51,779 nucleotides of DNA from Kiritimatiellia bacterium (GTDB lineage: Bacteria > Verrucomicrobiota > Kiritimatiellia > UBA8416): NCBI GenBank assembly GCA_007129405.1, contig SKVN01000054.1, positions 1 through 51,779 on the forward strand, read 5' to 3'. A program made the position numbers and the translations under genes. A model generated the notes under the pieces. That model did not search any database. It saw only the letters and a list, made by a program, of their open reading frames with translations, and was not told the DNA's origin. Shown here piece after piece: positions 1,899 through 51,779 of the stretch. How positions within the stretch are numbered: the first letter of the stretch is position 1; each line of letters begins with the position of its first letter.

Positions 1899-2221
1899 TG
1901 GATAACCCCATGCTCCCTATCGCCATTCTTGTGCACCTATTGATGATCAGCGGAAGCTTGATCATGTTCTTTGGTGTAGTCGGCATGGTCATATTGCCAG
2001 ACCTTTTCTTGCGTTTTCATGCGGCCACGAAATGCGGGGTGTCAGGAGCACTCTGCATCCTCGTTGGACTCTCTATCTGGGCTGGCTCAACAAGTTTTAT
2101 CCTCAAATTTGCTGTAATCTTGTTTTTCCTTCTGTTCACCTCTCCTATCATTGCCCATATGCTGGCCATCTCGAGACTGGGAGAGGATGCCAGCTCATCA
2201 GCAGAGGAGGATGAAGAATGA
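1898..2221 (+). CDS. mrpG: Mrp/Mnh antiporter subunit G
   Basis: Contains an MnhG-like segment (ILPDLFLRFHAATKCGVSG). Start and stop overlap the neighbouring genes. Confidence 0.75.
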   Translation: MDNPMLPIAILVHLLMISGSLIMFFGVVGMVILPDLFLRFHAATKCGVSGALCILVGLSIWAGSTSFILKFAVILFFLLFTSPIIAHMLAISRLGEDASSSAEEDEE

Positions 2222-2997
2222 CCCTCCCCAACCTGCTGCTTTTTTTTATGCTGATAACCGTTGTGGTCTTAGTTGCCTCACCGCGATTGATTCACAGCTT
2301 ACTTGCGCTATGTATTTTCAGTGCGCTACTTACATTACAATATGTTTTTCTCAAAGCACCCGATGTCGCCATCACCGAAGCTGCCCTTGGGGCGGGGCTT
2401 AGTACACTCGTATATCTTACGGCCATTCGCAAAACGGCAGACAAAACCACCCAACAACAACCAGATATAGATCTCAACCAACACGAACCGCAGGAGGAAC
2501 CACGCATGATTGCGCTACAAGAATACCTAACGCCCGACAATATCCATCTGCTCACGGCAAAAAAGCGAGACCAGATCATTCAGGAAATTCTTCAACACTG
2601 CCTGCACGACAAAGATCCAGCATTTGTCCAGCGGGTAACCCATGACGTATTGTCGCAGAAACGCAGCGCAAGCCCGATGGATATGAATCTGGGCAAAGGC
2701 TTCGCTCTCGTGCATGCCCGTCACGATGCCTGCGAAGAAGTACGCTTTGCCGTCGGTCTGTTACCCGAACCGCGTAATTTGTATCGTGGCGACAAAATAC
2801 ATACGATTATCGGTATCGTATTACCCTCTTCCCAATCCCGGCAGTACCTCGCCTTTCTCGCAAAATTTGGCCGACTCATGTATGCCCCGGAAGCGCCCCC
2901 CCTGTTCGAGGAAACCGGCAAATTGCTCGCCGCAGGAGAAAATGAGATGGCGAAAACAAAACTGGCTGCATTTGTCCAGACATTCGAGGAGGCCTAA
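2218..2997 (+). CDS. MbhD/DUF4040-like Mrp membrane segment fused to a PTS EIIA type-2 (EIIA-Ntr-like) domain
   Basis: About 75 aa at the N-terminus form two hydrophobic helices (APDVAITEAALGAGLSTLVYL). A Q/E/P-rich linker follows. The last ~160 aa have EIIA-2 layout with GKGFALVHAR, the conserved phosphorylatable His context. Confidence 0.6.
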   Translation: MTLPNLLLFFMLITVVVLVASPRLIHSLLALCIFSALLTLQYVFLKAPDVAITEAALGAGLSTLVYLTAIRKTADKTTQQQPDIDLNQHEPQEEPRMIALQEYLTPDNIHLLTAKKRDQIIQEILQHCLHDKDPAFVQRVTHDVLSQKRSASPMDMNLGKGFALVHARHDACEEVRFAVGLLPEPRNLYRGDKIHTIIGIVLPSSQSRQYLAFLAKFGRLMYAPEAPPLFEETGKLLAAGENEMAKTKLAAFVQTFEEA

Positions 2998-3000
2998 GCC

Positions 3001-3339
3001 GTGCGTGTACTTATCATTCATTTACTGAAAGAAGAAGATCTGCAAACAGTCTCCTCATTATTAATTGAACTCGGACTTTTCAATACTGCAATTGTCGATG
3101 GCGAAGGTGTCGAGAACATTGGCGTTCCCCAAGATCAACTCTTTGCTTCTTTTCAAAATCTTTTCGGACAGGGCTCTGCATACAACCGGACACTCATTGC
3201 TCCAGTGCCCGACATGGATACCGTAGAGATGTTCCTCCATTTATGCGAAGGACAAGGAATCGACTTCAAAAAGTCTGACACGGGCTGGCTCCTCTCCTTC
3301 CCGTGCGACTTTTTCGTGGGCGTGGAGGATGGCGCGTGA
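3001..3339 (+). CDS. PII-like (GlnB-fold-like) small signalling protein, 112 aa
   Basis: GTG start 6-7 nt after GAGGAGG. The length equals GlnB. The beta-alpha-beta / loop / beta-alpha-beta pattern lines up by eye (MRVLIIHLLKEEDLQTVSSLLIELGLFNTAIVDGEG; NRTLIAPVPDMDTVEMFLHLCEG). Fold assignment is by eye only. Confidence 0.4.
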   Translation: MRVLIIHLLKEEDLQTVSSLLIELGLFNTAIVDGEGVENIGVPQDQLFASFQNLFGQGSAYNRTLIAPVPDMDTVEMFLHLCEGQGIDFKKSDTGWLLSFPCDFFVGVEDGA

Positions 3340-3794
3340 AATTTCAGGATTCTGCCATTTTACAGGTAACACTGAGTAAGCTATTTCCATTTGCCGTACT
3401 GCTAAGCTTCTCGATTTTCTCCTATGGGGCAGCATTCCCCGGTGGCGGGTTTCAGGCCGGTGTTGTACTAGGTAGCTTTATCGTGGTCTACGAAATTGCC
3501 CTGAACCGCCCCACGCAATCCACCGCATTCTACAACTGGGTAGAAATTGCTGGTTTGATCGTTCTCGCTGTCGCTCTTGTCTGGGGCTGGATCGAAACCG
3601 GCAGACCATTTGGCGCTTGGCCTGCAGACCAACAGCCCCCCAACCTCAATCGCGGCTTGATCTGGAACAACCCCTACAAATGGTTATTGGGATTCGGAAT
3701 CTATCTCGAAGTAGCCGGATCCATGGTGCTCATCTTCCGACGCTTCATTCATTGGCATGAGGACGAGGGTCACCCCAAGGAGGCAACAGCATGA
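3336..3794 (+). CDS. mrpB: MnhB-domain Mrp subunit (MbhF-like)
   Basis: Contains the FPGGGFQAGVVLG motif of the MnhB family. GTG 3336 follows GGAGGA and overlaps the upstream stop (GTGA). Confidence 0.7.
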   Translation: MKFQDSAILQVTLSKLFPFAVLLSFSIFSYGAAFPGGGFQAGVVLGSFIVVYEIALNRPTQSTAFYNWVEIAGLIVLAVALVWGWIETGRPFGAWPADQQPPNLNRGLIWNNPYKWLLGFGIYLEVAGSMVLIFRRFIHWHEDEGHPKEATA

Positions 3795-4042
3795 AACGAA
3801 TTAGGTTTTGTAGCATTCTGGCACTCGCCCTCTGCGGAGTTGCAATTTTTCTTTTGTTGCCTCAGCCCGAACTGCTGACGCGGGAAGTAGGTGCCAGTTG
3901 GGTGCGCATCGCAGGACAAATGGGAATCCAGAACATGGTCACGGCTGTATACCTGGGTCCGCGCATGTTCGATACCTTTATCGAAGTCATGGTGGTCGTG
4001 CTCACGGTGTATGGCATGAAATTCGTACGGGAGCGAATATGA
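3791..4042 (+). CDS. Small MnhB-related Mrp membrane subunit (MbhE-like)
   Basis: NMVTAVYLGPRMFDTFIEVMVVVL resembles the NxVxAIlxdxRxxDTlxE segment of MnhB. ATGA overlaps on both sides. Confidence 0.55.
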   Translation: MKRIRFCSILALALCGVAIFLLLPQPELLTREVGASWVRIAGQMGIQNMVTAVYLGPRMFDTFIEVMVVVLTVYGMKFVRERI

Positions 4043-4350
4043 GTATCCTCATAATCCTTATTGGCCTATATGGCGTCATCAACAGCCCGAACCTCATCAA
4101 GAAAGTGATGTGTCTTTCCCTCGTGGAAAGCATGGTTATTATGCAATTTCTTGGCGTGGGGTTTCGTCGTGATGGCGGTGCCCCCATTTTGAATCAGGGG
4201 ATTGAAACATTCGTGGACCCGATCCCCCAGGCACTCATGCTTACGGCCATAGTCATCGGGGTGTGCTTCAATGCCTTGGCTGTCGCACTGATCGTTAAGC
4301 TCTATCGGCAACGCGGCACCGTAGACGTAAGGGAGTTACATGATCTTTGA
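4039..4350 (+). CDS. mrpC: Mrp antiporter subunit C (NuoK-like)
   Basis: Internal ATG 4039 overlaps the upstream stop. The 103-aa, three-TM product starts MSILIILIGLYGV, with conserved Glu in LVESMVI. Confidence 0.8.
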   Translation: MSILIILIGLYGVINSPNLIKKVMCLSLVESMVIMQFLGVGFRRDGGAPILNQGIETFVDPIPQALMLTAIVIGVCFNALAVALIVKLYRQRGTVDVRELHDL

Positions 4351-5902
4351 AGTCTTGCCTTCTTTGCCTCTCTCCTGGGAGATCTTCAGCAACCTGTGGA
4401 TGCTGCTACCGCTGCTGCCCCTTGCCGGCGTCCTGTTGATGCTCATCGCACAGCACAGCCTGCCACGCGATATCAGCGGAATCCTATTCCATCTCATTGT
4501 CTGTGCACAGCTTGTGCTTGGACTCCTCTTGCTGGCCGCGGCCGGAACCCATGGTGCCGCACCACGCGAAATGGCAGTCAGCCTGTGGGATTACGCCATC
4601 GTATTTCGCGTCGAGCCCATCAAAATCATGCATCTGTCCATTCTCATGATTCCCCTCCTACTTGCCCTACCCAAGTATGCAAATATCAATAATCCCTATC
4701 TGCGCATCATCTTTCTCTTCTTTCTATCGGGCTGCTCTGGAGTCGTTGTGACCGGTGACATTTTCAACCTATTTGTATTTTATGAACTTATGATCATGGC
4801 TGCATATGTACTTGTGGCCGCAAAGCAAAACTTTGCCGAATCCATCAAATACATGATGTTCGGCTCGATTAGTTCCATCGCCTTTCTGGGAGGCATCATC
4901 GTACTCTATGCAGGGGGAGCCCCCTTCAATATGCATGCCGATATATTTGCTGCCATCCCCGCCGCGAATGCTTGGTGGGCCATGGTACTCTTTACCTTTG
5001 CCTTTGGTGTAAAATCAGCGTTTTTCCCCATCGCACTGGCTCCCTGCCACGCTGCTGCCGGCTCTCTCTTTTCGGCATTTCTTGCCTCCTTCACAATCTT
5101 TACCGGCATGATCGGTTTACATTTTCTCGTGCTGCAACCTGCTGCCCTACTGGATATGCCTGCCTTCCATACACTCATTCGCACGCTATCCATTCTTACC
5201 ATCGTAATGCCATCACTTATTTTATTCTGGGAACCGGAATATAATCGGGCCGTTGCGCAAAGCACGATTATTGCGATTGGCATTACAGGCTTATTACTCA
5301 GCTATGGCCAACAACAATATGCCTTCCTCTACGTGCTCGTTCATGCCACGTACAAAAGCCTGCTCTTTATGCTTGGCGATGAGCTCAAACAATCGGCACG
5401 ATTTCTGAAAGTCAACTCAATACTGGCAATCATCATGCTCGCCATGGGTATCTTTCTCGCGTCTGGTATCACTCCGGCGCTTACCGCACACGTTAAGGGA
5501 GAAATAGAGCCAGCATCTTGGTGGATGCAAACGATCCTCCTGTTTTCCGGATTCTGCATAGTAGGAGGATTCGTGAAATTTCGTTATTCCCTCGAAACAC
5601 CGTCAACAACCCATGGCCAAAGGTGGAGAACATATTCTCTCTACATAATATATATTGGCCTCGTATTCCTACTCTATCACCAATTTGGCATACCTTCGTT
5701 CATGAACATCAAAACAGCCGTAGAACTAGGTGTTTTAGCGGTGGCCCTTCTGCTCGGGAAGCGAATATACCGATCCTTTCCACAGCTCGTATCGCTTGAT
5801 CGCCACTGGATCTATGGGGTGCTCAACCGGCAACTCCTCTACATCATCATCCTGTTCGTGTTCATCCTGCTCTGGCTCTACCCAACCAGCCAGCATCTGT
5901 AG
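4340..5902 (+). CDS. mrpD: Mrp antiporter subunit D (NuoL/M/N-type antiporter-like subunit, MbhH-like)
   Basis: 520-aa polytopic membrane protein with a proton-antiporter core (FNLFVFYELMIMAAYVLV). It is the only large antiporter-like subunit in the operon. Confidence 0.85.
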   Translation: MIFEVLPSLPLSWEIFSNLWMLLPLLPLAGVLLMLIAQHSLPRDISGILFHLIVCAQLVLGLLLLAAAGTHGAAPREMAVSLWDYAIVFRVEPIKIMHLSILMIPLLLALPKYANINNPYLRIIFLFFLSGCSGVVVTGDIFNLFVFYELMIMAAYVLVAAKQNFAESIKYMMFGSISSIAFLGGIIVLYAGGAPFNMHADIFAAIPAANAWWAMVLFTFAFGVKSAFFPIALAPCHAAAGSLFSAFLASFTIFTGMIGLHFLVLQPAALLDMPAFHTLIRTLSILTIVMPSLILFWEPEYNRAVAQSTIIAIGITGLLLSYGQQQYAFLYVLVHATYKSLLFMLGDELKQSARFLKVNSILAIIMLAMGIFLASGITPALTAHVKGEIEPASWWMQTILLFSGFCIVGGFVKFRYSLETPSTTHGQRWRTYSLYIIYIGLVFLLYHQFGIPSFMNIKTAVELGVLAVALLLGKRIYRSFPQLVSLDRHWIYGVLNRQLLYIIILFVFILLWLYPTSQHL

Positions 5903-32018: not shown

Positions 32019-33068
32019 GTGCCCAAAAAATCTGCAACATATATCAAATGGCAATTACCTATGCAACGCGTACTATACGCACTGGTGCCGATCATCATTT
32101 CCAGTGTTTACTTCTATGGATGGAGATCCTTGTTAATGGTTGTAGTTGCAAATGCCACAGCCTTTGCCGCCGAATACAGCTTTACGAAAAAGGACAAACA
32201 ACCCTGTACTTCAGCGGCCTTTGTTACCGGAACCCTTTTCGCTTTGGGCCTACCACCATTACTCCCCATGTGGATCGTTGTCATGGGTTCCGCCTTCGGT
32301 ATCGTATTTGGCAAAATGGTTTTTGGCGGTTTTGGCAAAAACGTCTTCAATCCAGCCCTCACGGGGCGTGCTTTCATTTATATCAGCTTCGGCGATTGGA
32401 TGACGGCCCGCGGTTGGACCCACGCTATACCCGGCATGCAGGGACGCGGACTCTTCCCCGGCGGATTTGCTGCATGGACAGCAGAGCATCGTTTCGGAAG
32501 TGACACCGTCACACAGGCCACACCAGGATCTTGGCTGACATGGAAGGAAGAAATGTTACAGGAGCGTTTGGATGCAACACTGACTGAAGCCCAAATGATG
32601 GCAGAGTACTTCCCGTGGAGAAGCCTGTTCCTCGGCAACACGGCCGGTGTCATAGGCGGAACCAGCGCGCTGCTCGTCATCGCTGGCGGCTTATACCTCC
32701 TGTACACCAAAACTGCCAATTATCGCATCGTGGTAACGGCCATTGTTGGTTACCTTATTTCGCAGTCAATCTTGCATTATACAGGGGCAGTCTCCAGCAC
32801 AGGAACCATCGCCGCCGCGCCCCAACATGCCTTATTTGCCGGCAGCGTACTATTCGCCGTATTCTTTTATGCAACGGACCCCGTCTCTGCCCCCAAAACC
32901 AATGAGGCGCGCTGGATGTATGGATCCTTCATTGGATTACTATATCCTGTACTGACGACATTCTCCGTGTGGCCTGCCGCCGCACAATTCTGTATCCTCT
33001 TGGCGAATATGTTCTCTCCGATAACAGACTATGCCGTCAACAGTGTGAAAGGGAGCAAAAAGAAATAA
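32019..33068 (+). CDS. nqrB: Na+-translocating NADH:quinone oxidoreductase subunit B (RnfD homologue)
   Basis: GTG start 7 nt after GGGGAGG. Polytopic. Flavinylation-type motif DTVTQAT. Confidence 0.8.
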   Translation: MPKKSATYIKWQLPMQRVLYALVPIIISSVYFYGWRSLLMVVVANATAFAAEYSFTKKDKQPCTSAAFVTGTLFALGLPPLLPMWIVVMGSAFGIVFGKMVFGGFGKNVFNPALTGRAFIYISFGDWMTARGWTHAIPGMQGRGLFPGGFAAWTAEHRFGSDTVTQATPGSWLTWKEEMLQERLDATLTEAQMMAEYFPWRSLFLGNTAGVIGGTSALLVIAGGLYLLYTKTANYRIVVTAIVGYLISQSILHYTGAVSSTGTIAAAPQHALFAGSVLFAVFFYATDPVSAPKTNEARWMYGSFIGLLYPVLTTFSVWPAAAQFCILLANMFSPITDYAVNSVKGSKKK

Positions 33069-33694
33069 TGAAAACCGATTTACTGAAAGAACGCATTTTC
33101 ACGGTTTTTTTTATGGTAGCTGTTACATTTGTGGCAATCACCCTAGTTGGTATCATTGACATTGTTACGGCCGAAAGTGTTGAACGTAACCGCGGTTTGT
33201 TTTTACGGCAGGCAGTAGCAGATGCGTTCGGCATCACGCAGCATGATTCCGTCCAAGACTTGCTCGACTGGTATGACGAATATGTGACAGAAGTGCGCGA
33301 TGAAAATGGTGCCCCGGATCACTTCTGGGTCAGCAATGAAGCAGGTGAAGAAAACCTGGTGCTTGTGTACCGTGGCTCTGGTCTCTGGGGTGGCATCACG
33401 GCTTTTGTAGGATTTGAAGCCGATGGAAAGACCATCCGTGGTGTCAATTTTCAAGACCACGTCGAGACCCCCGGCCTGGGGGCACGAATCGACGAACGCT
33501 GGTTTCGAGGGCAATTCGTCGGAAAATCAGGCCGATTCAAAGAATTACGCCCAGAACCCTCCGACAAAGACAATATAACAGGCGATAACAATGCGTTTCA
33601 CCAAGTAACGGGCGCAACCATAACGTCCACCTCTGTCCGTGACATTATGAATCAAAGCCTTGAAAAAGCAAAAACATTATTCAGCGAACGCTAA
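33068..33694 (+). CDS. nqrC: Na+-NQR subunit C (RnfG homologue, FMN-binding)
   Basis: N-terminal anchor. FMN attachment motif QVTGATITS. TAATG overlap with nqrB. Confidence 0.8.
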   Translation: MKTDLLKERIFTVFFMVAVTFVAITLVGIIDIVTAESVERNRGLFLRQAVADAFGITQHDSVQDLLDWYDEYVTEVRDENGAPDHFWVSNEAGEENLVLVYRGSGLWGGITAFVGFEADGKTIRGVNFQDHVETPGLGARIDERWFRGQFVGKSGRFKELRPEPSDKDNITGDNNAFHQVTGATITSTSVRDIMNQSLEKAKTLFSER

Positions 33695-33709
33695 GGGAGA
33701 TACACAGCC

Positions 33710-34330
33710 ATGGCCGCCGGCAAAATAAAAAAACAATTCATTCTCAGCGCGGGGAAAGACAACCCGGTCTTCGCGCAAATTCTTGGGATATGCTCTACGC
33801 TTGCGGTAACAAATGTCATTCAAAATACCGTAGTTATGTGCCTAGGCGTCATCTTCACGCTTGCTTGTTCCAATGTGACTGTTTCCCTGATTCGCAAATG
33901 GATTCCCGGCTCCATTCGTATGATGGTTGAAACGCTGATTATTGCTGCCTACGTGATTATCGTGGATATCGTCATACAAGCCACCTTGCCGGGAGTATCC
34001 CGTCAGCTCGGACCGTATGTAGGCCTAATCATCACCAACTGTATTATCATGGGACGCGCCGAGGCCTATGCCCTTAACAATCCCCCATTCCCCTCTCTCA
34101 TCGATGGTATTGCTTCCGGCATCGGCTATTCCTACGTGCTGCTGATCATCGCCGTATTTCGAGAAATTACCGGATCAGCAACATTCTGGGGATATCCCAT
34201 CCCTTGGTTCAGTGACTGGTGGACCAACTGGTCGATCATGGTCATGGCACCAGGCGCGTTCTTTGCTCTCGCTATCTTGATTTGGATTATCAAAACATAC
34301 ATTGTTCCCGAAGATCCCGGAGGTAAATAA
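33710..34330 (+). CDS. nqrD: Na+-NQR subunit D
   Basis: [18 protein letters not shown] and [15 protein letters not shown] are close to Vibrio NqrD. Confidence 0.9.
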
Positions 34331-34923
34331 TGCAGGAAATGACCGGACTGATCGCAATCTTTTTTGCCGCTATTTTTACGAATAATATTCTGCTGACCAA
34401 CTATTTGGGAATGTGTTCCTTTCTGGGGGTATCCAAGGAAGTAAAAACGTCACTTGGACTGGGAGCCGCCGTAGTCTTCGTTATGACGGCAACCTCGGTT
34501 CTGAACTGGCTGGTTTATTATTACGTGCTCGTTCCCCTAAACCTACAGAACTTCCGCTTCATCGTTTTTATTATCGTCATTGCTGCTTTCGTACAAATCG
34601 TCGAAATGATTATCGAGCGTATTTCGGAACCCTTATATAATGCACTAGGTATCTTTCTGCCTCTAATCACCGTAAATTGTGCCATTCTGGGCGTGAGCCT
34701 TTTCATGCTTATCCGTGAGTATACATTTGCGGAATCCTTCTTTTATGGAATCGGTAGTGGCATTGGTTGGATGCTTGCTATTCTTGCAATGGCCGGCATT
34801 CGCCAGAATATGAAACGCTCCAAAATTCCCAAAGGCCTGGAAGGCGCTGGCATAACCCTGATTATTGCTGGCATTATGGCACTCGCTTTCATGGGATTTT
34901 CCGGTGTTCTAAATATTCAATAA
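34330..34923 (+). CDS. nqrE: Na+-NQR subunit E
   Basis: [18 protein letters not shown] and [12 protein letters not shown]. Confidence 0.9.
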
Positions 34924-34992
34924 TGCGAACGAATGGACCGTGTAAAATCGAGCACCCCGGAATGATAAGGTGCAAAAAAAAGGAATAACAAC

Positions 34993-36099
34993 ATGCTTCT
35001 TGGTTTGGTCGTAAGTGTTGGCGCCATGTGTGGAATATCTACCGTGCTGGCACTTATCATGGTAGCGGCAGAATCCACCATTGGCAATTATGGTGACGTA
35101 AAAATCTCGATCAATGATGGCGAAAAAGAAATTGATGCGCGTGGCGGGAAGCCGCTTCTAACCACATTGAAAGAGGGCAAAGTTTTTATACCCTCTGCAT
35201 GCGGTGGGCGCGGATCTTGCGGACTTTGTAAATGCAAAGTAAAAGCCGGAGCCGGTGACGTATTGCCAACCGAGCTTCCGTGGCTTTCAGATGAAGAACG
35301 CGAAAACCAGGTACGCCTTTCCTGCCAACTCAAAGTAAAGGCCGATATGCAGGTTGAAATCGATCCGGAACTTCTCTATGTGCGCGAATTTAGAACCACG
35401 GTTGTAGGTCTTGATACGTTAACGCATGATATTAAGCAGCTCAGACTCAAACTCGAAGACCCCGACACCATGGAATACAAGGCGGGCCAATTCGTGCAAA
35501 TCGAAACGCCAGAGTACGCATTGACCGATGAACCCGTATACCGTGCATACTCGATGTCATCCGTTCCATCAGATCAAAATGAAATTGAAATGGAAATTCG
35601 TCTCGTACCAGATGGGATTTGCACAACCTATGTTCATCATCATCTGAAGGTGGGGGACACGATGATTGTGAATGGACCCTATGGCGACTTCAAGCTCTCC
35701 GACACCGACAAGGAAATGATCTGTATTGCCGGTGGCTCTGGGATGGCACCCCTAAAATCGATCCTATATGATATGCGGGAAAAGGATAGCAAGCGCAAAG
35801 CAACCTATTTCTTTGGCGCAAAATCCAAGCGCGATCTCTTCTTGCTAGACGAAATGAAACAGCTTGAAAACGATCTCCCTGCATTCAAATTTGTCCCGGC
35901 CCTCTCCGAGCCACAACCCGAAGATGATTGGAGCGGCGAAACAGGCTTGATTACAGAAGTTGTCGATCGTTTTACAGGTGATCTGGCAAATGCAGAAGCA
36001 TATCTTTGCGGCAGCCCTTTAATGATTGACGCTTGCATCGTTGTGCTCAAAAATCATGGCATGCCGGAAGAAAGCATATTCTACGACAAATTTGCCTGA
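34993..36099 (+). CDS. nqrF: Na+-NQR subunit F (2Fe-2S ferredoxin plus FAD/NADH-binding FNR-like module)
   Basis: N-terminal TM helix. CGGRGSCGLCKC cluster motif, RAYSMSS FAD motif, and GGSGMAP NAD(P)H motif. Confidence 0.9.
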   Translation: MLLGLVVSVGAMCGISTVLALIMVAAESTIGNYGDVKISINDGEKEIDARGGKPLLTTLKEGKVFIPSACGGRGSCGLCKCKVKAGAGDVLPTELPWLSDEERENQVRLSCQLKVKADMQVEIDPELLYVREFRTTVVGLDTLTHDIKQLRLKLEDPDTMEYKAGQFVQIETPEYALTDEPVYRAYSMSSVPSDQNEIEMEIRLVPDGICTTYVHHHLKVGDTMIVNGPYGDFKLSDTDKEMICIAGGSGMAPLKSILYDMREKDSKRKATYFFGAKSKRDLFLLDEMKQLENDLPAFKFVPALSEPQPEDDWSGETGLITEVVDRFTGDLANAEAYLCGSPLMIDACIVVLKNHGMPEESIFYDKFA

Positions 36100-38327: not shown

Positions 38328-38885
38328 CTAATCCCCCACGGGCAATTCACGCGTCATCACGCGTGTTACCGAAATCGTACCATCGACATCCAAACTTGCA
38401 GCCTGCGATGCGATTGTCAAAGTGCGAACCCGCATAAGACCGGGTGTCCTATGAATGGCATCTAAAAACTGCAACAGATTGGGGATTTCTGTTTCATAGT
38501 CCCCCACTTCAATCACGTAGGTTACCAAATAATCGGTTGTCTCTGGGGACAGATGCCGCATCGAACGAAGCTGAACCCCACTCGACAGAGCTAACTCATC
38601 CAACGCATCCTTGAAAGATTCAATGGTTTCTGATTGGGCCCCCGTCACACCTAGCACATCCTTTATATCCAGATACTGCTCTCGGACAGAATCCTCATAC
38701 TGCAAAACACCAAGGGATCGCCTTAGTTCCCCCTCTTCGGTCAGTATGGCAGCATCTAAAGCATCTAGCTGCCGGAACGCTGGTTTAAAAACAAAAGCAT
38801 CTGCAACCATGAGAACCATAAACCCTACCGCGAGCAGAAGACCGACTCGTTCCCGCAGCGGCAACTGGGCAAGCTTCATAATCAT
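38328..38885 (-). CDS. GspM/PilO-like assembly-platform protein
   Basis: Single N-terminal TM, short coiled coil and ferredoxin-like C-terminus. 4-nt overlap with the upstream GspL-like gene. Confidence 0.55.
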   Translation of the reverse strand: MIMKLAQLPLRERVGLLLAVGFMVLMVADAFVFKPAFRQLDALDAAILTEEGELRRSLGVLQYEDSVREQYLDIKDVLGVTGAQSETIESFKDALDELALSSGVQLRSMRHLSPETTDYLVTYVIEVGDYETEIPNLLQFLDAIHRTPGLMRVRTLTIASQAASLDVDGTISVTRVMTRELPVGD

Positions 38886-40360
38886 GATGAATGTCCCCCT
38901 GTAATCCGGCCATTGATTTGAAACCGAAACCTTTCTCTATTATCCATAGCTGTACCACCTGCTTCCTCCACCTGCTTAAAATAAGGTGTTTCCTCTAATA
39001 AGCGTATTAACTCTCGTATATCTCGGCGCTGCGGCGCTGAACCTTGAATGGATATACGTCCATTCTCGATCTGCAACGAAAGAGAATCGAGAAAAACCCC
39101 TTCAGGAACAGCCGCATGTATGACTGGCAGCAAGTGCTCTGGCATCACCTGTATTTCCTGACGACCACGAGTCGCCCGAAGAATTTCCACTCTCCGCTCT
39201 ACCTGCATCACCTGGGGAAGCAGCAATGCCGTTTCTGCCTTAAGCTCTTCCAAATACTGCACCCGATTCCATGCCCCTAAGGAAAAAAACAGTGATGCCG
39301 CCACCAGCAAAGCGGCCACCGCTGAAGTCAAACCCGCCCAGCCCTTGCCAAGCAACAGTAGACGCTGGCGCATCGCATATACATCTGGCACAAAGTGTAG
39401 AGCAAGTTTATCGGGAGCAAGAGCCATTCCAATAAGGCCCGTCAGCGATACAGAAGATCTCACTTCATTCGTCAAATGTTCTTCAGCCACAGGATTCACC
39501 TTCACATCCTGCAAAGGATCAACACTTTCACAGGAAACGTTCAAAGACGCTTGCAGGGCATTAACCATTTCCGGGGTGCGGGCAGATTCTGCCCCTGAAA
39601 GCAACAGAACATCAAAGCCTTTCCCTTGCAATACATCCTCGCAGGCACGTGCCGCTTCCTGTACGCGCTCGACAAATGCATCCACACCGGCATCCACTTG
39701 CTTAACGCCCCATAAAAGACTCTTTGTAAAAATCACTTGGCGATCTCGTATGACCAGCATGTGCGTAAAATACGAATCAACATCCAACGACAAAACAACT
39801 TTTTCCGCAGGCATGGATCGCGTGTGATACAACACCCATTGTAATACACCTTCAGATGAAACCCCCATACGATCCACAGCAAGCCCCGCATCCTCAATCG
39901 CGTAATAACGCTCGCGCACGATGCTCCGCTGCACAATGGCCAGCAACACACGCATGTAGGTTCCCCGCCGCGTCTGACCAACCATTTTGATTCCAGACAA
40001 AATCTCCTGAATCGAGTATGGGGTCTGGCGACTAACCTGCAATTCAACCATGTCCTTAATTTCAGTCGGGTCAATAGAAGGTAATTCCAGCAGTCGTACG
40101 TTAACTAACTGACGAGGAATACTGCAAAGAAGCGGAACATTTGCAAACTTCACCGCCTTGAAAGCTTTTTGCAAACTTTCCCCAACTATGGTTGAAGCAT
40201 CTACTCGCTCGAAATAAGCTTTACTAAGTGTTAAACCAGAGCGCTGACTTGTAAGTTCCAGCACCTTGATCCAATCGCTGCTTACCTCCAGAAACACTGC
40301 CGTGGGCCGCGGGCTCAAGCGTACCGCACTAGAATCCTCCGCTAACATCTTTTTTGCCAT
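38882..40360 (-). CDS. GspL-like protein (PilM-type actin-like cytoplasmic domain + TM + PilN-like periplasmic domain)
   Basis: 492 aa. One central TM (GLTSAVAALLVAASLFFSLGAW). Its position lies between GspK-like and GspM-like genes. Confidence 0.6.
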   Translation of the reverse strand: MAKKMLAEDSSAVRLSPRPTAVFLEVSSDWIKVLELTSQRSGLTLSKAYFERVDASTIVGESLQKAFKAVKFANVPLLCSIPRQLVNVRLLELPSIDPTEIKDMVELQVSRQTPYSIQEILSGIKMVGQTRRGTYMRVLLAIVQRSIVRERYYAIEDAGLAVDRMGVSSEGVLQWVLYHTRSMPAEKVVLSLDVDSYFTHMLVIRDRQVIFTKSLLWGVKQVDAGVDAFVERVQEAARACEDVLQGKGFDVLLLSGAESARTPEMVNALQASLNVSCESVDPLQDVKVNPVAEEHLTNEVRSSVSLTGLIGMALAPDKLALHFVPDVYAMRQRLLLLGKGWAGLTSAVAALLVAASLFFSLGAWNRVQYLEELKAETALLLPQVMQVERRVEILRATRGRQEIQVMPEHLLPVIHAAVPEGVFLDSLSLQIENGRISIQGSAPQRRDIRELIRLLEETPYFKQVEEAGGTAMDNRERFRFQINGRITGGHSS

Positions 40361-45777: not shown

Positions 45778-48145
<2,368 letters not shown>

Positions 48146-48187
48146 GCTCGAGGCCTTCCATACTACTAGCCTAGGAACTTCGCAGTA

Positions 48188-48937
48188 CTAATCATGGTGA
48201 ACCGCCTTCTTAACCTCAAGCACAGCTTCGCGGTAACGGTTCAACAAACTTCCGTCAATTTCCAAACTTCCCATCTTCAAAACCACGCCCGACAATAACG
48301 ATTCATCCACATTCTCCGTAAGCGTGGCGTCCTTGTGGAATTTTTCGCGCAATACGGATGTAAGCTCCTCACGCACCGTATCAGGTAAGCTATGACTGGT
48401 AGTAATCTGCGCATCAGATGTATCAACGGTCACGGCACCAGGCTCAACCTCGCCCAAAGCCGCAATCAGCTCTCCCGTAAACAAGGCGTTTAACTCGGCG
48501 GTCAATAGATCACTGAAAACCAAATGGAATATCTCACCGCCATAGTTTACGGCTTTCTCCTCCATTTCACGCAAAACTTGATCCCGTAATTTCTGCTCAC
48601 TTGCTTTTGCCTGGTCGATAATCTTCTGCGCATCCTGTTTGGCCTCATTCACGGAAAGTTCCTTCAGCCGGGCGGCCTCACGCTTCGCCTCATCCTGCAA
48701 ACCTTCGATTTGCCGTTCAAATTCCGCCTTCCTCTCCGCCAAATCCCGCTCGTGTTGGTCGACTTCCAAACGCATACTTTCTTCACGCTTACGAACTTCC
48801 TCCTCCACCTCACGCACGCGTGCCACCGCACGACTAGCTGAACCTTGCATGTAAAGCCGGACTAAAATGATAATGGCACCCAACACCACTACGTGCAGGC
48901 CTAAAATCGGAGCGGCTACCATCAAAACTTCCCTCAT
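48188..48937 (-). CDS. atpF: Fo subunit b with a delta(OSCP) C-terminal-domain-like tail
   Basis: N-terminal TM, then about 110 aa of charged coiled coil. The C-terminus DESLLSGVVLKMGSLEIDGSLLNRYREA parallels the delta pattern D.s..GGv.i..Gd.[10 protein letters not shown]. Confidence 0.6.
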   Translation of the reverse strand: MREVLMVAAPILGLHVVVLGAIIILVRLYMQGSASRAVARVREVEEEVRKREESMRLEVDQHERDLAERKAEFERQIEGLQDEAKREAARLKELSVNEAKQDAQKIIDQAKASEQKLRDQVLREMEEKAVNYGGEIFHLVFSDLLTAELNALFTGELIAALGEVEPGAVTVDTSDAQITTSHSLPDTVREELTSVLREKFHKDATLTENVDESLLSGVVLKMGSLEIDGSLLNRYREAVLEVKKAVHHD

Positions 48938-48995
48938 GATTCCCTTTCGTCGTTAATTCGGACCCAATAATGGGTACACCATACTTGTATTTAGC

Positions 48996-49211
48996 TTACC
49001 CTCGCCCAAAAATTTGAAATAATATCAATAACGCAATCACAGCAATTGCCTCTGAAAACACGAGCGAAATGATCATCGCTTGCAGAATTTTCGGCGCAGC
49101 CGAAGGGTTCCGACCTAACGCCCGTATGCTCGCATATCCGATCGATGCAATCACCGCCGAAGGCCCTATTATCGTAACAAACATTACCAGCACTATGATA
49201 AAATTATCCAT
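48996..49211 (-). CDS. atpE: Fo subunit c (single hairpin, 71 aa), atypical helix 1
   Basis: Polar loop LGRNPSA. Carboxylate in helix 2 (LVFSEAIAVIAL). No GxGxGxG motif in helix 1. Confidence 0.75.
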   Translation of the reverse strand: MDNFIIVLVMFVTIIGPSAVIASIGYASIRALGRNPSAAPKILQAMIISLVFSEAIAVIALLILFQIFGRG

Positions 49212-49222
49212 CGAGGTCTTAC

Positions 49223-49498
49223 CTATTTTTGCCCAACATCCTCATGCACCACAGATGCCATCTGTGCCGAGGCCTCCTCCACCAAAATCACACATTCATT
49301 CCCCGAAAATTTGACCATCCCTCGGTTAATAGGAATTTTGTGCTGCCCATCTACCACAACATTCCCAGGTCGCAACAAGCTGACGATAGGCGCATGGTAG
49401 TCCATTATCTCAAACTCTGCAAGATCGCCCGCAAGCTGTATAGCATGCGCGGTTCCTTCGTACACAACTCTCCGGGGACTTAAAACTTTCAATAGCAT
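49223..49498 (-). CDS. atpC: F1 epsilon subunit, beta-sandwich domain only (91 aa)
   Basis: LKVLSPRRVVYEG...GDLAEFEIMDYHAPIVSLLRPGNVVV matches the epsilon N-terminal domain. There is no room for the two C-terminal helices. Confidence 0.7.
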   Translation of the reverse strand: MLLKVLSPRRVVYEGTAHAIQLAGDLAEFEIMDYHAPIVSLLRPGNVVVDGQHKIPINRGMVKFSGNECVILVEEASAQMASVVHEDVGQK

Positions 49499-49501
49499 GC
49501 A

Positions 49502-50998
49502 TTACTCCTCGCTACGCACCGAAGCATCCATCTCTTGCGCATGCCAGTCTTTCAGAATTTGCTGAATCCCATCTTCGAGATCAGGCGTCAATTCCGTGGC
49601 ATCCTGCAGCCTACGCATAATCCCGTCGTGCAAATGCCTTGCAACCCCCCCGATTTGCGAGCAAAACGCACGCTGTGGCTCCCGCGAAACATGATCCAGG
49701 TGTCCTCCACGTAACGCATAGAGCAAAATCACGAGTTCGGCCTGCGAGCATAATACATGATGCCCTTGGCGAAAAACCTCACGAATAGCTTCACCACGTA
49801 AAATTACTTCTTTCGCTTCATCGGAAACCGAAGACAAGCGGCTTAATTGCAACATTTCGAGATAAGCAGCGTGGGCCGTCCGGATATCCGCGGTTAATGC
49901 TCGCAAAATGAGCGGCTGTGTACGCCCCCCGACAATTGACAGCGACATTTGCGGATCCACCGCAGGGCGAACACCCTCCGCAAAAATCGTATTACTCAAT
50001 ATCAATTGCCCATCACACATGGAAATAAGATTGGACGGGATATACCCAGTCAAGTCTCCCTGTTGCGTATCTGCTAACGAAAGAAAAGTCATCGAACCAG
50101 AGCCATGCCGCTCATTAAAACAACCAGCTTGTTCCATCAATTGCGTGTGCATATAGAAAATGTCACCAGGGTACGCCTCCCGACCCGGTGGGCGGTCCAA
50201 CAACAGCGAAAGTTGCCGATAAGCCCAAGCATGCTTTGTTAGATCATCCAGCACCACCAGGACATCTTTCCCCCGTTGCACAAACCAATCCCCTATTGCG
50301 GCGGCGGTAAATGGAGCAATATATTGCTCAGCTGCGGGTGCATTATCCGTTGCCCCCACGATGATGGTATAGGGTAACGCATGCCCTTCCACGAGGGTAG
50401 ACATCGCTTTTTCGAGCGCGGATACCGACTTGCCGACACAACAATAGATACAGACCACACCGCTGTCCTGTTGATTCAGAATGGCATCCAAGGCGATCGA
50501 ACTCTTGCCCGTCATTCGATCTCCAAGGATGAGTTGGCGTTGCCCCATACCAATGGGCGTTAAGGCGTCAACGATTTTCGTGCCCGTCAGAAGCATTCGG
50601 CGAATGGGCGCGCGATCCATCAGTGATGGTGCCTCACGAAATACCGGGATATTTTCCGTGTTCTTCAATTCACCATGCTCGTCAAAAGGCTGCCCCATGG
50701 CCGTCAGCATACGCCCTAGACAACCGTCCCCCGCAGGCACCGTAAAGGGTTCACTTTTTCCGCGCACTTCTTTGCCCATACGCAATTTGGACGTTGACCC
50801 AAGCGCAAGCGCACATACAGAATCCTGATCGAATTCCATCACCAACCCCAAGACATCATCACCCATGTCAACAATTTCGCCGGTCAAACAGCCCGGTAAA
50901 CCATCAATATGAACAACCGTGTCTTTAATGTCATGAATGGTACCCTTCTCTTCAAACTTTAGCTTGAAGAGCGGTATCTTTGAAGGTAACGAGCTCAT
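49502..50998 (-). CDS. atpA: F1 alpha-subunit paralogue 2 (divergent)
   Basis: GDRMTGKS Walker A, LVVLDDLTKHAWAYRQLSLLLDRPPGREAYPGDIFY, and PSNLISMCDGQL. The SVSRVGG segment reads SLSIVGG. Confidence 0.85.
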   Translation of the reverse strand: MSSLPSKIPLFKLKFEEKGTIHDIKDTVVHIDGLPGCLTGEIVDMGDDVLGLVMEFDQDSVCALALGSTSKLRMGKEVRGKSEPFTVPAGDGCLGRMLTAMGQPFDEHGELKNTENIPVFREAPSLMDRAPIRRMLLTGTKIVDALTPIGMGQRQLILGDRMTGKSSIALDAILNQQDSGVVCIYCCVGKSVSALEKAMSTLVEGHALPYTIIVGATDNAPAAEQYIAPFTAAAIGDWFVQRGKDVLVVLDDLTKHAWAYRQLSLLLDRPPGREAYPGDIFYMHTQLMEQAGCFNERHGSGSMTFLSLADTQQGDLTGYIPSNLISMCDGQLILSNTIFAEGVRPAVDPQMSLSIVGGRTQPLILRALTADIRTAHAAYLEMLQLSRLSSVSDEAKEVILRGEAIREVFRQGHHVLCSQAELVILLYALRGGHLDHVSREPQRAFCSQIGGVARHLHDGIMRRLQDATELTPDLEDGIQQILKDWHAQEMDASVRSEE

Positions 50999-51779
50999 TG
51001 AGAAACCCCTTTTGCATCTCGTCTGTCATACGTTTTTCTTCCACCAGCGAATTAACCAAGTCTGCCCGGCGTAGCCGTAAATGCTCCATGAAAAGCGCCA
51101 TAACAGGTCGCACCTGAGGTGGGGCAACATTTTCAAATAATCCATTCTGCAATGCGAACAAGAGCAACACCTGCTCCTCCATGGGGACAGGAGCATTCTC
51201 TTTCTGCTTTAACACTTCCTCCAGCACCTTACCTTTATTTAAGCGAGCTTCCAAGTCAGAAGAACCGCCCGCTTTAATGCGTGTCAACTTTTCTAGCTCA
51301 CGGTACCGCACATAATCAATCTTGAGCATGCTCGTGGGCTTTTTCATGGCTGGCCATTGTACCTTGCTACCAATACGTGATACGGATAGACCTAAATCGA
51401 CAGCAGGTTTGAAACCTTCGCCAAATAGCGTTGCGTTCAAAAAGATCTGCCCATCGGTCATCGAAATAATGTTGGAAGGGATATACCCTGCAAAATCACC
51501 TTGCTGCGTCTCCACAATCGGCAAATGCGTCATGGACCCCCCACCAAGTTCCGGCTTCATTTTCCCTGCACGCTCCACCAGCTGAGAGTGAATATAGAAA
51601 ATATCACCGGGATAGGCATCACGCCCGGGTGCGCGTTCCAACAACAATGAAATCTGGCGGTACGCCCAGGCATGCTTCGTGAAATCATCAAAAACAACGA
51701 GAACATTACGCCCCTCTTCATACATGAAATACTCGCCAATGCTTGCCGCCACGTATGGCACCAGGTATTGCTGCCCCAT
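50952..51779 (-). CDS. atpA: F1 alpha-subunit paralogue 1; the 5' end lies beyond the window edge
   Basis: LVVFDDFTKHAWAYRQISLLLERAPGRDAYPGDIFY, PSNIISMTDGQIFL and GLSVSRIG (Arg retained). The reading frame is open to base 51779. Confidence 0.85.
   Translation of the reverse strand: MGQQYLVPYVAASIGEYFMYEEGRNVLVVFDDFTKHAWAYRQISLLLERAPGRDAYPGDIFYIHSQLVERAGKMKPELGGGSMTHLPIVETQQGDFAGYIPSNIISMTDGQIFLNATLFGEGFKPAVDLGLSVSRIGSKVQWPAMKKPTSMLKIDYVRYRELEKLTRIKAGGSSDLEARLNKGKVLEEVLKQKENAPVPMEEQVLLLFALQNGLFENVAPPQVRPVMALFMEHLRLRRADLVNSLVEEKRMTDEMQKGFLNELVTFKDTALQAKV

Follow-up and report, generated by a model that had tools for sequence, protein, structure and literature searches.

Several described systems place a small regulatory protein or domain on an ion or solute transporter. 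They form the background for the gene studied here, an open reading frame (ORF) at positions 2218-2997 on the forward strand of a 51,779-nucleotide contig from a Kiritimatiellia bacterium (SKVN01000054.1 of assembly GCA_007129405.1; the whole of this stretch is called the window below). In this gene a membrane subunit of an Mrp-type cation/proton antiporter is joined in frame to a domain resembling EIIA type 2 of the phosphotransferase system (PTS). In E. coli the EIIA type-2 protein PtsN controls TrkA, KdpD and the antiporter YcgO of the CPA1 (cation/proton antiporter 1) family, and unphosphorylated PtsN binds and inhibits YcgO, which exchanges K+ for H+ (PMC11808508). PtsN and the domain found here have the fold in common, as well as a histidine at the phospho-acceptor position and an association with a cation/proton antiporter. 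However, PtsN is soluble, separately encoded and acts in trans, whereas the domain in the window is covalently joined to a subunit of a CPA3 (Mrp) antiporter, has no second active-site histidine and is paired with a protein partner of its own, the predicted fold of which is PII-like. For LacS of streptococci and lactobacilli an EIIA-type regulatory domain also sits on the C-terminus of a transporter outside the PTS, and this EIIA(Glc)-like domain is phosphorylated by HPr (PMC10710835). Only the architectural principle is common to both cases: LacS is a sugar transporter of one polypeptide and its domain is of the EIIA-Glc type (PF00358), which belongs to another fold family, whereas here an EIIA type-2 domain (PF00359) is attached to one of the small subunits of a cation antiporter that has many subunits, a free copy is probably also made and the operon includes the gene of a second regulator. 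The SLC4 anion exchangers (Band 3, AE2, NDCBE) likewise have an EIIA-like fold covalently placed on an ion transporter as a regulatory domain, but those domains are eukaryotic, N-terminal and much larger, and are not phosphorylated on an active-site histidine.

Two further comparisons concern the neighbours of the fusion gene. PII proteins plug AmtB and SbtA (PMC10710835). Like the PII regulators (GlnK-AmtB, SbtB-SbtA and the carboxysome-associated CPII), the 112-amino-acid (aa) partner protein is small and its gene lies within a transporter operon; unlike them it has no sequence similarity to the PII family, it has its own conserved acidic DGEG-x-E loop and a YN pair, and the Mrp complex is not known as a trimer. 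For the operon itself the nearest relatives are the stand-alone mrpEFGBB'CD operon of Pyrococcus furiosus (PF1147-53; PMC8415708) and the membrane arm of the membrane-bound hydrogenase (MBH; MbhA-H, 6CFW). Group 3 of the Mrp complexes is defined as being without MrpA and having MrpD only (PMC8415708). The archaeal systems and the window operon have the gene order beginning with E, F and G in common, as well as the lack of MrpA, the single MrpD-like subunit and the replacement of the MrpA C-terminus by MbhD-type and MbhE-type pieces. In contrast to the archaeal operon, which has no genes for cytoplasmic regulators, the window operon has the EIIA-like and PII-like genes after mbhD, the MnhB gene precedes the MbhE-like gene and the hosts are soda-lake bacteria.

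The ORF at 2218-2997 (+) is open over 259 codons and holds both parts in a single frame. The N-terminal part (aa 1-78, positions 2218-2451) was matched by the Pfam family MbhD (PF13244) over aa 10-73 with E = 1.6e-16. A profile search of the PDB with this part retrieved the MbhD chains of the membrane-bound sulfane reductase MBS (6u8y_D, 4.9e-15) and of MBH (6cfw_D, 1.8e-14). The identity given in the preliminary description, an MbhD/DUF4040-like segment, is thus upheld by Pfam. The segment had been described as having two helices, but AlphaFold2, run with an alignment of the family, models three (residues 3-20, 24-45 and 50-78). Glu54 (codon 2377-2379) lies within the invariant APDVAITEAALGAG motif and aligns with E69 of 6cfw_D; it is the counterpart of a glutamate proposed to coordinate Na+, as the homologue of MbhD E69 is MrpA E706, which Steiner and Sazanov assigned to the Na+ site or path (PMC7419157). 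A hypervariable linker of ~22 residues rich in Q, E, P and T follows (aa 75-96, positions 2440-2505), noted as Q/E/P-rich in the preliminary description, and residues 77-93 are predicted to be disordered (predicted local distance difference test, pLDDT, below 50). The remaining 163 aa (97-259, positions 2506-2997) form the EIIA type-2-like domain, close to the size of about 160 aa estimated earlier and backed both by hidden Markov model (HMM) searches and by the fold: Pfam PTS_EIIA_2 (PF00359), for which the gathering score is 27, reached 38.1 bits over aa 103-225 (E = 1.8e-9), and the modelled domain has a pLDDT of ~90. Both domain matches exceed chance expectation. Within the linker lies the Shine-Dalgarno (SD) sequence AGGAGG (2492-2497), separated by 8 nt from an in-frame ATG (2506-2508, Met97). 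The positions reported for these two elements and for the histidine codon CAT (2713-2715, His166) are exact in the sequence. ORF 2218-2997 is therefore a genuine in-frame fusion of MbhD and an EIIA type-2 domain, as originally claimed.

A missed stop or a sequencing error near 2440-2505 could have produced a false fusion, and we ruled this out on three grounds. The identical protein was found in three independent assemblies (ENA ERZ27301261, Logan SRR7083931 and NCBI GCA_003567805.1). Across positions 2100-3400 the contigs of four soda-lake and salt-lake metagenome runs showed substitutions only and not a single indel; all polymorphic sites of the linker in those runs were substitutions, and 2492-2508 was unchanged. 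Finally, a survey for fusions of DUF4040 and EIIA found the two-domain architecture repeated in ~21 protein clusters with 33-95% identity, and a HMMER search over 1.84 billion representatives at 50% identity returned three fused ones (259, 225 and 231 aa). The sequence comes from soda-lake and alkali-sediment metagenomes, the nearest named genome being a metagenome-assembled genome labelled 'PVC group bacterium' (PVC: Planctomycetes-Verrucomicrobia-Chlamydiae). More distant copies were found in soda-lake Spirochaetia genomes and in one organism with type-IX-secretion tails (locus L024). A scan of metagenome contigs for further loci added four to the set of related loci, which are referred to below by their L numbers.

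To place the EIIA-like domain we compared it by structure and by sequence. The top Foldseek matches in the PDB were the PtsN structures 3urr, 2a0j, 4gqx and 1a6j, with target-normalised template modelling (TM) scores of 0.70-0.73 and E-values between 7e-7 and 1e-4. These were followed by other EIIA-2 proteins and by the cytoplasmic EIIA-fold domains of SLC4/Band 3/AE2/NDCBE exchangers. Residue equivalences were taken from alignments to PtsN of Burkholderia and of E. coli. His166, the histidine of GFALVHAR, aligns with the histidine of G-x-A-I-P-H-G in both PtsN proteins, i.e. with the phospho-acceptor His73, and the position of the second active-site histidine (PtsN H120) is taken by Tyr210 (codon 2845-2847). 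In 23 diverse members His166, Arg208 and Tyr210 never vary, nor does the Phe-Glu at the C-terminus, and the histidine is retained in all sampled sequences from the core family through to ordinary EIIA-2 relatives. The preliminary description was right in that the phospho-acceptor histidine is kept. The family is small: among 5.8 billion proteins we found 37 clusters at 90% identity, all with E <= 1e-34, and the HMMER search of the 1.84 billion representatives gave 20 with E <= 1e-30. It grades continuously into ordinary EIIA-2 proteins of 150 aa, which the family profile still reaches at 50-60 bits.

The relation between fused and separate forms bears on the internal start. The MbhD and EIIA-like genes are separate in L008/L009, in L024 and in all Spirochaetia loci (L002-L007, L015-L017), and in L008/L009 and L006 the two genes overlap in different frames. 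In the split relatives the EIIA-like gene begins with an ATG at the counterpart of Met97, preceded by an SD. Because the starts of the split genes sit at the homologous methionine, the internal SD-ATG of the window is the start signal of a formerly separate EIIA-like gene. The arrangement of AGGAGG, 8 nt and ATG was observed in five of the seven fused DNA sequences (the window, L001, L020, L021 and L022). Among those five the spacer differs at 5 of its 8 positions and the remaining linker cannot be aligned. For glutamine the linker of the window uses CAA four times, and CAG occurs solely inside the SD. L019, which has a short linker, shows AGGAG, 9 nt and a GTG at the Met97 position. A signal that stays constant while the linker is hypervariable points to selection on the signal in most fused lineages. 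The internal start therefore probably yields a free EIIA-like protein of 163 aa besides the fusion protein. The preliminary description had raised this second start as a possibility, and its coincidence with the start codons of the split relatives and its presence in most fused sequences make it plausible. Two of the three database entries that look like direct proof were rejected: the 163-aa proteins P0018 and P0019 are truncated calls of fused genes at contig edges (L022:1-554 and L023:1-504), and in L022 the frame stays open upstream, with the same AGGAGG-N8-ATG in it. Truly separate EIIA-like genes were found only as P0020 (L008/L009), in the Spirochaetia and in L024, and entries cut by contig ends could mislead surveys of fused versus free forms. 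Taken as sequences, these forms indicate that originally separate, overlapping mbhD and EIIA-like genes merged in the PVC-group lineage of the window, with the old ribosome binding site and ATG surviving inside the merged gene. The natural fused and split variants are a ready-made experiment on tethered versus free regulators.

The fusion gene is the fourth of nine tightly packed genes, all of which abut or overlap and lie on the forward strand. The operon begins with an mrpE/mbhA-like gene (1147-1650; Pfam MNHE, E = 2.3e-27), followed by an mrpF/mbhB-like gene (1647-1898; MrpF_PhaF, E = 2.7e-13) and an mrpG/mbhC-like gene (1898-2221; PhaG_MnhG_YufB, E = 5.8e-19), the stop of which overlaps the start of the fusion gene in ATGA. 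Behind the fusion gene and the gene of the 112-aa partner lies an mrpB/mbhF-like gene (3336-3794; MnhB, E = 1.2e-15); its GTG at 3336, in line with the gene call in L010, overlaps the preceding stop. The next gene (3791-4042) encodes a membrane subunit of 83 aa that weakly resembles MbhE, i.e. the second half of the MrpA C-terminal region; here all HMM matches were below cutoff (Pfam MbhE with E = 0.014, NCBIfam PRK12567/PRK12504 with 1e-6 to 2e-4). It is followed by mrpC/mbhG, which is NuoK-like (4039-4350; Oxidored_q2, E = 1.5e-22), and by the last gene of the operon, which encodes a single antiporter-type subunit of 520 aa resembling MrpD/MbhH (4340-5902). For this subunit NCBIfam models of the MrpD/NuoN type gave 4e-20 to 5e-20, all under their cutoffs, and the Pfam family Proton_antipo_M gave no match at E < 0.1; its orthologues in L013 and L019 do match PF00361. 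By Pfam and NCBIfam the one operon thus holds homologues of MrpB, C, D, E, F and G. The N-terminal antiporter-like subunit MrpA is missing, and 4340-5902 encodes the sole large subunit.

The operon is flanked by a GDSL lipase and by a ZIP transporter on the opposite strand. It recurs with unrelated flanking genes in L008, L010, L013, L019, L020, L021 and L024 and, being conserved despite different flanks, can be regarded as a self-contained unit. No genes of a hydrogenase or redox module (MbhJ-N) were found in the window or in the six related loci with differing flanks. From its gene content the complex is assigned to the stand-alone MrpA-less Group 3 of Mrp cation/proton antiporters with Mbh gene order, the antiport activity being predicted. 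The earlier assignment to an Mrp membrane subunit has to be corrected in that this is not a canonical Mrp. Scans for promoters and terminators of the operon remained at chance level and were uninformative. In the Spirochaetia locus L006 (8973-9788) MnhB and the 83-aa MbhE-like subunit form one ORF of 271 aa, a second polymorphism between fused and split forms. The operon at L024:1725-4783 consists of E, F, G, MbhD, an EIIA-like gene of 148 aa, the PII-like gene, MnhB, an 82-aa gene and an MrpC-sized gene of 101 aa; no MrpD-like gene follows, and the next gene is a peptidase on the opposite strand.

Directly behind the fusion gene, with a GTG start 3 nt past its stop, lies the gene of the 112-aa partner (3001-3339, +), an obligatory neighbour which the preliminary description had overlooked. 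It follows the EIIA-like gene directly in 24 of the 24 loci that extend far enough, and relatives of its product are confined to the same set of operons. Its SD, GAGGAGG, lies inside the final codons of the fusion gene. The codons TTC GAG GAG (2987-2997), which specify the invariant Phe-Glu-Glu at the C-terminus, double as the SD of the gene starting at GTG 3001; part of what appears as conservation of the protein may therefore be conservation at the nucleotide level. AlphaFold2 modelled the 112-aa protein as beta-alpha-beta-beta-alpha-beta with a pLDDT of 82. All of the top 50 Foldseek matches in the PDB belonged to the PII family (PII, GlnK, CPII, SbtB, PotN), with modest scores (E >= 5.8e-3, TM ~0.5). 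Its invariant residues are mostly acidic (D33, E35, E38 and D88), together with Tyr61-Asn62. A conserved Cys, Ser or His that could take over a phosphoryl group from the EIIA-like domain was also considered and rejected: no residue of these three types is invariant, and at least one member has a substitution at Cys82, as is also the case for Cys102 and for Ser50.

The two genes also occur elsewhere. On a 79-kb contig (L025:10001-10838) we found an EIIA-like gene (163 aa) followed by a PII-like gene (113 aa, 40% identical to the product of 3001-3339). No Mrp gene lies within 10 kb of this pair, and its neighbours are an acid phosphatase and chromate transporters. Its occurrence in L025 apart from any Mrp operon gives the pair the look of a regulatory cassette of two genes. 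In the Mrp operons this cassette lies between mbhD and mrpB in the PVC-group, Spirochaetia and type-IX-secretion-bearing lineages. Judged by sequence and synteny, the EIIA-like and 112-aa genes thus form a conserved two-gene cassette in at least three soda-lake bacterial lineages.

As a whole these observations are best explained, with a probability of roughly 50%, by a genuine fusion within a conserved cassette, in which the EIIA-like domain acts as an on-board regulator of antiport. We consider it secure how the gene is built and conserved, how its split and fused forms are related by evolution and that the acceptor histidine is kept, and put the mechanism forward as a hypothesis. With three helices the positive charges, R23 on the one hand and R71, K72 and K76 on the other, fall on those loops that place the C-terminus inside, and from this we infer that the C-terminus of MbhD is cytoplasmic. 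The EIIA-like domain would therefore be held at the cytoplasmic face, beside the subunit that lines the proposed Na+ path. From this place, where the third helix of MbhD ends in the cytoplasm, it would regulate antiport on board. The state of the domain would plausibly be set by phosphorylation of His166 from a phosphocarrier of the HPr/NPr type, and by way of such phosphorylation the domain would report phosphoenolpyruvate (PEP) and energy status. A second input, via some ligand, would come from the PII-like partner, and the internal SD-ATG would probably also yield the free 163-aa EIIA-like protein. Precedents that support the proposal are the inhibition of YcgO by unphosphorylated PtsN and the blocking of AmtB and SbtA by PII proteins.

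Several observations weigh against this explanation. Some of them concern the relation of the domain to PtsN. The equivalog model of PtsN (TIGR01419) scores 16.2 bits with a cutoff of 138.7, and the PDB sequence profile reaches PtsN only with E ~0.4, which makes the domain distant from PtsN by sequence. The second catalytic histidine (PtsN H120, IIA-Mtl H111) is replaced by the invariant Tyr210, and the proline before the phospho-acceptor histidine by Val165. The second histidine is also absent from some ordinary EIIA-2 relatives, some of which carry GFALPHAR plus the tyrosine. The EIIA(Ntr) identity originally proposed did not survive these comparisons: the domain is a divergent EIIA type 2 and not a PtsN orthologue. 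In addition we compared ~50 genes of the window with Pfam and went through the gene tables of all related loci obtained: there was no gene for Enzyme I (EI), HPr/NPr or HprK in the 52-kb window or in the ~250 kb of related loci. One candidate, a protein of 415 aa with a PEP-utilizers match (PF00391) encoded 5 kb from the operon in L019 (7694-8482, -), was rejected as Enzyme I; its mobile-domain motif GGRVGLGALLALR is without the histidine of the usual motif.

Other points concern the internal start and the partner. In the fused genes of L013/L014 there is no internal start codon (GTC ACT ATT). The internal start was lost there and a free EIIA is therefore not obligatory; in at least this one fused lineage the domain would, going by the gene sequence, be made as the fusion protein only. 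The motif AGGAGG-N6-9-ATG occurs 10 times in the window with 1.6 expected, and five of these occurrences are true starts and four are spurious; strong SD-ATG motifs thus turn up by accident within other genes as well. As the motif alone does not go beyond chance, the significance of the SD-ATG rests on homology and conservation. For the 112-aa protein we found no match to Pfam (including PF00543) or NCBIfam, hhalign gave a probability of 0.4% when it was compared with E. coli GlnB, and a sequence-profile search of the PDB found nothing. Since there is no sequence-level link to PII, the term PII-like is tentative and names the predicted fold only. The known PII-regulated transporters are, moreover, trimers (PMC10710835). 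No evidence from RNA or protein was found; the sole metatranscriptome of the same sample was without contigs of the operon, which is not evidence of absence.

The main rival to a phosphorelay holds that the EIIA-like domain keeps the EIIA fold as a sensor or adaptor independent of phosphorylation. It would sense cytoplasmic pH or a ligand, or dock the PII-like protein onto the Mrp complex, and His166 would serve for binding. We regard this as possible, if doubtful. It fits the retrieval by Foldseek of SLC4/Band 3/AE2/NDCBE domains, which regulate ion transporters, as well as the degraded active-site signature with its changes of Pro to Val and of the second His to Tyr. The lack of PTS genes near any locus, the dedicated partner that is always co-encoded and the existence of the pair as an autonomous cassette point in the same direction. 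However, the acceptor histidine is invariant across the core family and in all sampled sequences of the continuum, which would be expected if phosphorylation were retained. Genes of the PTS(Ntr) are normally unlinked to their targets, and the absence of linked PTS genes carries little weight.

An improbable reading is that the pair is a passenger cassette with its real target elsewhere, so that its placement among the Mrp genes and the fusion to MbhD would be the neutral result of gene overlap. The pair is found without Mrp genes in L025, and one small indel between overlapping genes can create a fusion. Yet the cassette occupies the same position between mbhD and mrpB in the PVC-group, Spirochaetia and type-IX-secretion-bearing lineages, and the fusions persist in three 50%-identity clusters with different linker lengths. 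Furthermore, the domain exists in L013/L014 only as part of MbhD, and a membrane-tethered protein is unlikely to serve a distant target. That the fusion is an artefact or a pseudogene, created by a missed stop or frameshift near 2440-2505 in an organism that truly has two genes, is extremely improbable: relatives do carry two overlapping genes in different frames, but three independent assemblies agree to the letter, the four metagenome runs have no indels and only substitutions in the linker, and the fused frame is retained across lineages of 57-95% identity and in the short-linker clade.

Returning to on-board regulation of antiport, the EIIA-2 superfamily, the Group 3 Mrp complexes and the general theme of transporter regulation by EIIA and PII proteins are known. 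What is new is that these elements are combined, that the domain is covalently attached to MbhD, that it has a partner family of its own and that the gene probably has two products. Our literature search turned up neither reports of Mrp-EIIA fusions or of PII-like genes within mrp operons nor a description of a protein dedicated to regulating an Mrp complex. The pair of EIIA-like and 112-aa proteins may thus be the first known built-in regulator of an Mrp-type antiporter. In its most specific and speculative form the proposal would be that, in the MrpA-less Mrp complex of soda-lake anaerobes, a two-protein sensory cassette gates the Na+ path of MbhD via PTS phosphorylation and a second ligand, and that the gene of the PVC group makes both a tethered and a free EIIA. 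If true, no post-translational regulator would have been known before it for any membrane module of the Mrp or complex-I type. Mrp antiporters are essential at high pH and salt, and the membrane arms of complex I, MBH and MBS have them as their evolutionary core. A signalling domain on the subunit with the proposed glutamate of the Na+ site would offer a testable handle on how ion flow is switched and on the cytoplasmic opening of the Na+ path. The finding would also extend the PTS-type regulation of cation homeostasis beyond the Proteobacteria to uncultured members of the PVC group and to Spirochaetia, and the 112-aa protein and its relatives are a new family of small proteins whose predicted fold is PII-like.

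Other parts of the window showed further features. At 32019-36099 lies a cluster resembling the Na+-translocating NADH:quinone oxidoreductase (Na+-NQR), with NqrB, C, D, E and F identified by Pfam, which fits a sodium-based energy economy; immediately upstream there is no NqrA-like gene, and the preceding gene is TolB/PD40-like and on the opposite strand. An ORF of 492 aa (38882-40360, -) joins PilM-like and PilN-like domains within a type II secretion/type IV pilus cluster (~38.3-45.7 kb). The end of the window (45778-51779, -) is taken up by an ATP synthase cluster of unusual make-up. It has two consecutive genes of the alpha/beta family (50952-51779, cut by the end of the window, and 49502-50998), followed by a gene with matches to the b-subunit and to delta/OSCP (48188-48937), a gamma gene and an alpha/beta-family gene with a C-terminal domain of the V/A type.

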